From Escherichia coli (lineage in GTDB: Bacteria > Pseudomonadota > Gammaproteobacteria > Enterobacterales > Enterobacteriaceae): 64,000 nucleotides of DNA. Made by a program: the position numbers and the translations under genes. Positions 24,345-24,440 of this stretch are shown in pieces (position 1 is the first letter of the stretch; each line of letters opens with the position of its first letter). The DNA lies in NCBI RefSeq assembly GCF_050920415.1, contig NZ_CP169309.1; one strand, written 5' to 3'. Below the pieces are notes generated by a model. The model searched no databases and was not told the origin of the DNA. It saw nothing but the letters and a program-made list of their open reading frames with translations.

Positions 24345-24440
24345 GCACTGTCGGATGCGGCGTGAACGCCTTATCCGACCTACGGACAGTGCGTTTTGTA
24401 GGCCTGATAAGACGCGGCAAGCGTCGCATCAGGCAACCCG
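24345..24440. repeat. REP (repetitive extragenic palindrome) cluster between thiQ and yabI
   Basis: gccggatgcggcg / gcctgataagacgcg type imperfect palindromes. Confidence 0.7.

Follow-up and report, generated by a model that had tools for sequence, protein, structure and literature searches.

Four intergenic sites with two-unit BIMEs of the BIME-2/atypical class in the murF–carB region of an Escherichia coli chromosome

The window analysed here, a 64-kb stretch of the E. coli chromosome from murF to carB in reversed orientation relative to the MG1655 annotation of K-12, contains eight REP units at four intergenic sites. Each site is a two-unit BIME of the BIME-2/atypical class. The sites lie between thiQ and yabI (site A), araA and araD (site B), caiA and caiB (site C) and caiE and caiF (site D). 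It is almost certain that they are copies of the E. coli REP/BIME family. As parts of transcripts, they would most likely act as hairpins that form a barrier to exonucleases, perhaps together with Rho-dependent attenuation. The four sites are already known and represent ordinary biology. REP and BIME elements have been described since 1982–1991, the copy-number polymorphism between strains and the loss of RAYT in some lineages have been published, and the araA-araD BIME has itself served as an experimental substrate. For annotation, the spacers should be labelled as BIME-2/atypical with two units each, and not as novel RNAs or terminators.

Results and discussion

Identity and placement of the REP units

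The core pattern GATAAG-N5-14-CGCATC was taken from the published family description and is independent of the copies studied here. It has eight matches in 64 kb, exactly the eight units, where 0.06 are expected by chance. None of 100 dinucleotide shuffles reached this number. The motif CKGATAAG is found nine times in the window compared to 2.67 expected occurrences. Pairwise alignment, which had been proposed as a check, showed that the units are related and that a common core is present in all eight. In the GTAG orientation they share the segment GTAGGCC(G/T)GATAAG and, beyond an inner stem and loop that vary, the segment CGCATC(C/A)GGCA. The AA/GC bulge (GATAAG...CGCATC) is kept in all eight units and the 5' GTAG in seven. 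The units are 30–38 nt long, with predicted hairpin energies of -4.7 to -12.9 kcal/mol as DNA and -7.9 to -22.1 kcal/mol as RNA.

Corneloup (2021; PMC8266576) gives lengths of 35 nt for y, 29 nt for z1 and 37 nt for z2 units, all preceded by GTAG, and describes a conserved AA/GC bulge that interrupts E. coli REPs. Subtype names in this report follow these lengths, as the z1/z2 naming is in conflict in the literature: the REPtron units are called z1 in Messing 2012 and z2 in Ton-Hoang 2012 and Nunvar 2010. Compared to the Y and Z2 consensus sequences of Nunvar et al. (PMC2817692, Table 1), the y units match at 30–33 of 35 positions and the z2 units at 34–35 of 37, with B2 and D2 being intermediate. 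Pairwise identities amount to 87–92% among the z2 units (A2, B1, C1) and 81–86% among the 35-nt y units (A1, C2, D1). Across subtypes they range from 54 to 79%. The copies had originally been predicted to be near-identical, which is correct within a subtype but not across subtypes.

A profile scan of the 64 kb, partly circular in that the profile was built from the same eight units, gave no further copy, and the next match scored 4.9 bits compared to 21.7 bits for the weakest unit. Thus, neither the core pattern nor the profile adds to the four sites of the original prediction, and the list is complete for the window. The ranges given there lie within about 5 nt of the refined units; at site B the start (29741) falls in a truncated third unit. 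The family is dispersed. An 801-bp query that includes BIME A has, even with megablast, matches at a median of 11 places in each genome, and the literature gives roughly 290–570 REPs per genome. The 801-bp query around site A matches 5,425 of 5,426 complete E. coli genomes, with a 100% match to strain MFDS1022581 (NZ_CP169399.1).

All eight units are extragenic and lie between annotated genes, in agreement with the coordinates of the open reading frames. Consensus, GTAG, bulge, extragenic place and membership in a dispersed multi-copy family together confirm that REP units are present at the four sites. Sites A and D separate convergent genes (thiQ and yabI, caiE and caiF). Sites B and C lie between codirectional genes inside the araBAD and caiTABCDE operons, respectively, as had been proposed. 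The further claim that REP units occupy both flanks of the caiF-caiE junction does not apply: one BIME is found there; the second, separated from it by 4.4 kb, belongs to the caiA-caiB spacer.

In an Rfam scan of the whole window, SgrS, the leu leader and the TPP riboswitch were the only matches, none of them at the four sites. No curated RNA family thus scores above its threshold at these sites, which does not speak against REPs. The MG1655 RefSeq record lists no curated REP features. Among other small repeats, an ERIC core and a G/C-rich palindrome known from other strains (see below) are absent from the window.

Anatomy of the four BIMEs

The coordinates of all units and linkers are given in Table 1. 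The architecture is the same at each site: an inverted unit ending in ...CCTAC is followed by a linker of 12–14 nt and a unit starting with GTAGG..., so that the two units are arranged tail-to-tail. Site A is composed of y and z2 and site C of z2 and y. Site B combines z2 with a short G-type unit and site D contains two G-type units; for this reason B and D are classed as atypical.

Table 1. Coordinates of REP units, linkers and the truncated remnant in the window
Feature	Length (nt)	Position	Strand	Remarks
A1, y-type REP	35	24349-24383	-	minus-strand sequence GTAGGTCGGATAAGGCGTTCACGCCGCATCCGACA; follows thiQ stop (24339-24341); Y consensus 33/35; crystallised y REP 30/32; GTAG and AA/GC bulge present
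BIME A linker	14	24384-24397	.	GGACAGTGCGTTTT; without IHF consensus, 1 mismatch allowed
A2, z2-type REP	38	24398-24435	+	Z2 consensus 35/37; precedes yabI stop (24454-24456, - strand gene)
Truncated REP remnant, site B		29735-29750	+	GTAGCTGCATCAGGTA; abuts araA stop (29732-29734)
B1, z2-type REP	37	29756-29792	-	Z2 consensus 34/37; inside araBAD
BIME B linker	13	29793-29805	.	GCGCTGTGATTTT
B2, short REP	30	29806-29835	+	z1-like length; G at the G/T position separating y from z; 13 nt to araD ATG (29849); araD Shine-Dalgarno GAAGGAG 3 nt after B2
C1, z2-type REP	37	57687-57723	-	Z2 consensus 34/37; inside caiTABCDE; follows caiA stop (57674-57676)
BIME C linker	12	57724-57735	.	GGGAGTACGAAT
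C2, y-type REP		57736-57770	+	Y consensus 31/35; 34 nt before caiB ATG (57805)
D1, y-type REP	35	62141-62175	-	Y consensus 30/35; follows caiE stop (62135-62137)
BIME D linker	13	62176-62188	.	CTGGAGAGCAACC
D2, G-type REP, z2-like inner stem	35	62189-62223	+	precedes caiF stop (62254-62256, - strand gene)

Some units depart from the pure subtypes. B2, the weakest real unit in the profile scan with the 21.7 bits given above, and D2 fit no pure y, z1 or z2 label, and D1 has degenerated to CCAG in place of GTAG. C2 has a hybrid stem, T-type in the left arm and G-type in the right. On its own it forms a weak hairpin, but its pairing with C1 is nearly perfect and gives one long hairpin. At site B, the arm GCATCAGG of the truncated remnant (29741-29748) can pair with the head CCTGATGC of B1 (29758-29765), and this alternative hairpin appears in the minimum-free-energy fold. 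The araA-araD arrays of K-12, O157 and BL21 begin with the same truncated remnant.

The IHF consensus WATCAANNNNTTR is absent from both strands of the four spacers, even if one mismatch is allowed. BIME-1 elements (RIP/RIB) resemble the present sites in that a transcription unit carries two inverted REPs, as one module, at its 3' end. They consist, however, of y and z1 (29 nt) with a long L linker that binds IHF, whereas 37-nt z2 T-type units and short linkers are found here. With linkers of 12–14 nt that lack an IHF site, an assignment to BIME-1 was rejected.

The closest known elements are the y/z2 REPs in BIME-2 and atypical BIMEs (Gilson, Bachellier, Hofnung; Ton-Hoang et al. 2012), which share length, GTAG, bulge and a near-consensus sequence with the present units. 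The inverted pairing, the short linker, the position after stop codons and the tandem copy-number variation between strains are also alike. The present strain differs in having a single module per site, and B2, D2 and D1 show the peculiarities mentioned above. The REPINs of Pseudomonas (Bertels and Rainey 2011) are likewise inverted REP doublets, thought to be the unit mobilised by RAYT. They belong to another sequence family and host, and the RAYT locus of the present strain is occupied by hicAB.

RNA folding and proposed function

The spacers were folded as RNA on their transcribed strands and compared to 200 shuffles each. In every case, none of the 200 shuffles folded as well as the native spacer (z-scores from -3.5 to -7.9). 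Site A gives -47.9 kcal/mol on the thiQ side (z -4.6) and -55.1 kcal/mol on the yabI side (z -4.8). The araA-araD spacer gives -46.0 kcal/mol (z -3.5) and the caiA-caiB spacer -66.2 kcal/mol (z -7.9). For site D the values are -45.9 kcal/mol (z -5.0) on the caiE side and -61.1 kcal/mol (z -6.3) on the caiF side. Two separate hairpins are predicted at sites A and B, and at the cai sites (C and D) the inverted units pair into one long hairpin.

Hairpins formed by REPs withstand PNPase and RNase II, and they indicate where the steady-state 3' ends of Rho-terminated messages lie (Dar and Sorek 2018). The roles described for transcribed REPs are protection of the upstream mRNA from 3'→5' exonucleases, an association with Rho-dependent 3' ends and attenuation of transcription (PMC2817692, PMC8266576). 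An involvement in mRNA stability and processing is the role classically documented for REPs in transcripts (Newbury 1987 and Higgins 1988, cited in PMC6061677 and PMC8266576; Dar and Sorek 2018). The original prediction had suggested that the two intra-operon sites could be stability or processing elements, and this fits the strong predicted RNA hairpins. The intercistronic REPs of malE-malF, which stabilise mRNA (Newbury et al. 1987), resemble the ara and cai elements in being intercistronic, in lying inside an operon and in their strong predicted hairpins. By this analogy a similar function may be inferred for the latter.

Judged from the published work, an RNA-level function may be proposed for the four sites, most likely by the following mechanism. 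The units would be transcribed as parts of the thiQ, araBA, caiTA and caiTABCDE messages, and on the other strand as parts of the yabI and caiF messages. Each unit would form a stable G+C-rich hairpin, or a pair of units one long hairpin. Such a hairpin would block 3'→5' exonucleases, stabilising the message upstream of it and giving rise to steady-state 3' ends at this point. Transcription into araD and caiBCDE may in addition be attenuated in a Rho-dependent manner. The hairpins could in this way favour araBA over araD and caiTA over caiBCDE. For the two intra-operon sites the chances of a measurable RNA-level effect are about even. They are smaller at the convergent sites because those sites vary freely (see below).

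Site-specific support for such a role concerns site C and is indirect; it comes from published Rho-termination data and from the hairpins in other species described below. Supplementary file 2 of Adams et al. 2021 contains a Rho-termination region at MG1655 position 39251 (minus strand), which is classed as internal to caiA. Without bicyclomycin the read counts are 57 (upstream) and 27 (downstream), and in its presence they are 67 and 114, respectively. The resulting Rho score of 3.59 (p 3.2e-6) derives from low read counts in 800-nt windows and gives coarse support. Position 39251 is located 7 nt inside the 3' end of caiA and abuts the BIME at 39150-39233. The dataset has no entries for thiQ, yabI, araA, caiE or caiF, as expected for genes that are poorly expressed in the media used.

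Alternatively, the units might act on translation. According to PMC12306157, ribosome stalling was reported by Liang, Rudd and Deutscher (2015) for REPs within 15 nt of a stop codon. In this model, the ribosome that terminates translation stalls at the hairpin, the message is cleaved and tmRNA is recruited, which would lower translation of the upstream gene. In the window, the first full unit begins at a distance of 7 nt from the stop codon of thiQ, 10 nt from that of caiA and 3 nt from that of caiE, all within the 15 nt of this rule. A translational effect on ThiQ, CaiA and CaiE is thus possible. At araA the first full unit is 21 nt away, and the distances to the stop codons of yabI (18 nt from the end of A2) and caiF (30 nt from the end of D2) also exceed 15 nt. 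The truncated unit directly behind the araA stop codon, with its potential pairing to B1, speaks in favour of a translational role. Overall, down-regulation of upstream translation is regarded as rather unlikely to explain the elements. The exonuclease-barrier mechanism is preferred.

Variation within E. coli

Approximately 5,400 complete genomes were queried with the flanking 200+200 nt only, and the span between the flanks was taken as the spacer length. For each site, 60 records at even steps down the ranking were evaluated (59 of the 60 with a complete spacer). As this selection is non-random, the counts illustrate the range. One representative per length class was fetched and read.

The araA-araD spacers have lengths of 114 bp (7 records), 168 bp (16), 199 bp (10), 284 bp (25, including K-12) and 369 bp (1, BL21). 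The classes contain one, two, three or four copies of an 85-bp two-unit module, and the 168-bp class corresponds to one module plus a different G/C-rich palindrome. The caiE-caiF spacers measure 85 bp (20, including K-12), 116–119 bp (28) or 205–208 bp (11, including B strains); one degenerate unit is present in K-12, two in the window and four in B strains. At thiQ-yabI the lengths are 112–113 bp (47), 101 bp (3), 86 bp (4, O157:H7 and O55:H7), 81 bp (3) and 69 bp (2). Most strains possess two units there and O157:H7 one. The 81- and 69-bp classes contain no REP, and the G/C-rich palindrome takes its place. The caiA-caiB spacers measure 127–128 bp (50) or 117 bp (9, with a shortened linker), and two units are present there in most E. 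coli. The G/C-rich palindrome, which may resemble the 'Box C' repeat, is itself a dispersed family that occupies a median of 12 places in each genome. Engineering of araBAD or caiTABCDE in strains other than K-12 should expect other spacer lengths, for example 114 compared to 284 bp at araA-araD.

The discrete length variation is consistent with published accounts of BIMEs as a major intergenic polymorphism with locus-specific variation in copy number (Ton-Hoang 2012). Large changes are tolerated at no obvious cost: K-12 has a single degenerate unit at caiE-caiF, O157:H7 has a single unit at thiQ-yabI, and some strains have no REP at the latter site. This speaks against strong selection on sites A and D at least. 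At sites B, C and D, on the other hand, no complete spacer among the evenly stepped records (59 of 60 for each site) lacks a REP unit.

These observations bear on a further explanation, namely that the sites are selfish or neutral relics, REP/BIME copies that settled in permissive spacers past stop codons and have no selected role in expression. Units are gained, lost and replaced in discrete steps between strains, as seen in the length classes of araA-araD, caiE-caiF and thiQ-yabI, and in some of them another multi-copy palindrome takes the place of site A or stands beside the units of site B. A lone REP between folA and apaH in K-12 is missing from the window. D1 has lost its GTAG, the stem of C2 is mismatched, and the literature gives similar numbers of REPs whether or not a strain has tnpA_REP. 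The retention of units at sites B, C and D stands against relics, as do the Rho-termination region at site C in K-12 and the occurrence of REPs or unrelated hairpins between caiA and caiB in other genera, described in the next section. Furthermore, a selfish origin is compatible with an RNA-level effect acquired later. Taken together, it is unlikely that the sites are mere relics.

The caiA-caiB spacer in other species

A search with a degenerate DNA pattern, written for a motif conserved in CaiB, yielded 69 species-representative loci. Within Escherichia, the caiA-caiB spacer contains two REP units in sp. MOD1, six in E. albertii (273 bp), six in E. whittamii (386 bp) and seven in the GTDB representative of E. 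coli (305 bp). REP units are also found in Citrobacter (one or two), Pseudocitrobacter (two), Salmonella enterica subsp. arizonae and diarizonae (one) and Yokenella (one). E. coli-type REPs were not found in the caiA-caiB spacers of Proteus, Providencia, Edwardsiella, Hafnia, Budvicia and others. Most of the REP-free spacers have a strong unrelated hairpin just past the caiA stop codon: 27 of the 34 REP-free spacers of at least 40 nt fold with z < -2 (median -3.0), and in 12 of 17 genera the median is below -2. Bare spacers of 20–27 nt occur in Shewanella marina, a Campylobacterales genome and Malaciobacter. In the caiE-caiF spacer, REPs are present only in E. coli and some Citrobacter among the retrieved loci.

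Two readings of the caiA-caiB pattern are considered. Either an intercistronic hairpin between caiA and caiB is selected across Enterobacterales, where it would set the ratio of caiTA to caiBCDE by blocking exonucleases and by Rho-dependent attenuation, or the spacers are permissive places in which palindromic repeats particular to the respective lineage have settled. If selection applies, REPs would have been co-opted in the Escherichia-Citrobacter-Salmonella group, their copy number (1–7) would serve as a dial, and by analogy the one to four copies at araA-araD would tune AraD. This scheme is speculative and has a low probability. The hairpins of other species could be selfish palindromic repeats of their own. 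Since a hairpin is found between caiA and caiB in most taxa, whether formed by REPs or not, the spacer offers a natural test case for the co-option of REPs in intra-operon control.

Gyrase binding and termination

A role of the four BIMEs at the level of DNA would involve binding and cleavage by DNA gyrase, together with DNA polymerase I, and would serve the relief of supercoils between convergent or strongly transcribed units and the organisation of the nucleoid. Strong binding and cleavage in vivo at BIME-2 and at BIMEs of the atypical kind are known for gyrase from the literature, and polymerase I binds REPs. Sites A and C have the composition of BIME-2 (y and z2), and sites A and D are located between convergent genes, where positive supercoils accumulate. 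However, no sequence feature separates BIMEs that are bound by gyrase from those that are not, and the strong sites reported are multi-copy BIME-2, whereas the single modules in the window represent the minimal form. In addition, expression of the thiQ, ara and cai units is low in most conditions. A DNA-level role as the main explanation is therefore quite improbable.

That the sites are intrinsic (Rho-independent) terminators or chance palindromes was rejected as practically impossible. G+C-rich hairpins do stand at gene ends, and short T runs (GTTTTG and ATTTTG) occur in the linkers of A and B, but these runs do not border on the stems, no terminator was called at any of the four sites, and the eight core matches far exceed the chance expectation. 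A promoter scan likewise returned none at the sites.

The mobilising enzyme

In K-12, the gene rayT for the REP-associated tyrosine transposase lies between yafL and lfhA, and the literature places it at a single fixed locus. It was found in 3,575 of 5,426 E. coli genomes. The REP elements are non-autonomous repeats at the DNA level. The enzyme (RAYT/TnpA_REP) recognises a REP folded as single-stranded DNA, by way of its GTAG and AA/GC bulge, and cuts at CT sites. Its activity, together with ordinary recombination between units, would give rise to the copy-number polymorphism. In vitro, the araD-araA BIME of MG1655 (oligonucleotides B315 and B316) is a substrate for cleavage and recombination by TnpA_REP, which cleaves at CT sites and generates strand-transfer products with extra REPs (Ton-Hoang 2012). 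Tandem amplification is described for BIME-2 and atypical BIMEs in the same work. The addition of REPs by strand transfer offers a mechanism for the amplification of the 85-bp module.

At the canonical locus examined in the host strain (NZ_CP169399.1), the junction of yafL and flhA (lfhA) contains hicA/hicB and no rayT. Ton-Hoang et al. described such a replacement of rayT by hicAB, chiefly in strains of clade B1, in which the flanking BIMEs were lost as well. Most likely, the four BIMEs are static in this host, since its rayT locus has been replaced.

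The caiA-caiB BIME

The BIME between caiA and caiB consists of two inverted REP units, C1 and C2 (Table). Compared to the K-12 counterpart (MG1655 39150-39184), C2 carries a T instead of a G in its left arm and differs at one position of its right arm, which reads ACGTCGC in the window and ACGCCGC in K-12. With these differences, the hairpin of C2 itself is weaker and its pairing with C1 is almost perfect. The changes look like gene conversion involving C1 and C2. The caiA-caiB BIME is expanded in E. albertii, in E. whittamii and in the GTDB representative E. coli, with 6-7 units in spacers of 273-386 bp. 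In a sample of 60 complete E. coli genomes, no caiA-caiB spacer was longer than 128 bp.

The caiE-caiF region

A hairpin with a T run (CCCCTGCAAACGGGGG CGATTTTCCT) resembles a terminator and is located within caiE, in the 3' end of its coding sequence; on the caiF strand it lies downstream of the BIME. This hairpin is a candidate for the caiF terminator, in which case the BIME would fall in the 3' UTR of caiF. In Providencia rettgeri RB151 the caiE-caiF spacer measures 1,739 bp, compared to 38-208 bp in other genomes, which suggests an insertion.

A second palindromic repeat family

In some E. coli strains the REPs of the thiQ-yabI spacer are replaced by another G/C-rich palindromic repeat, CCCCTCGCCCC..GGGGAGAGGG..GGGTGAGGGG. 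In araA-araD spacers of the 168-bp length class, this repeat lies between the BIME and the ribosome-binding site of araD. The spacers concerned are orthologous to 24342-24453 and 29836-29848 of the window; in one of the fetched loci (L003) the repeat region covers positions 300-350. Copies of the palindrome occur at a median of 12 places per genome, which makes it a multi-copy family. The repeat resembles 'Box C', a candidate name for the family.

Toxin-antitoxin genes at REP-associated loci

The folA-apaH spacer is ~560 bp longer than its K-12 counterpart, where a lone REP is found instead of ccdA and ccdB. The antitoxin gene ccdA is intact, and ccdB is inactivated by one in-frame stop at codon 37 (...RRIVIP*TPIERF...). 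This arrangement agrees with the 'decay of ccdO157' described by Mine et al. (2009, cited in PMC3184786).

Outside the window, the junction between yafL and flhA contains the REP transposase gene rayT in K-12, whereas a hicA/hicB toxin-antitoxin pair occupies this position in the host strain (NZ_CP169399.1 4096938-4097565). The adjoining Flag-2 flagellar genes flhA, flhB and fliPQR are intact in the host strain; K-12 has the lfhA pseudogene.

Table. Positions of repeats, genes and RNA elements in the window.
Feature	Position	Strand	Remarks
Leucine operon leader	14084-14233	+	Rfam gathering-threshold match
SgrS	18992-19218	-	Rfam gathering-threshold match
TPP riboswitch	20975-21074	+	Upstream of thiB; Rfam gathering-threshold match
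15-bp tandem repeat	37248-37322		Five copies
folA-apaH spacer	45982-46613
ccdB	46292-45978	-	After ccdA, in folA-apaH spacer
ccdA	46295-46528	-	Pfam CcdA, E 1.3e-26
51-nt direct repeats	54631-54738		Two copies, 57 bp spacing
C1	57687-57723	-	REP unit
C2	57736-57770	+	REP unit
Terminator-like hairpin	62095-62110	-	caiF strand

Other repeats and RNA elements

A repeat finder detected a tandem array of a 15-bp unit (GGTAGCACCGTCCAG-like), which judging by its position probably belongs to the yabP/yabQ region. Both 51-nt direct repeats contain TTTCAATATTG...CACCAATATTGAAA. They are located in the divergent caiT-fixA control region and plausibly represent paired regulator-binding sites. The three RNA elements matched in Rfam (Table) are as expected for this region.
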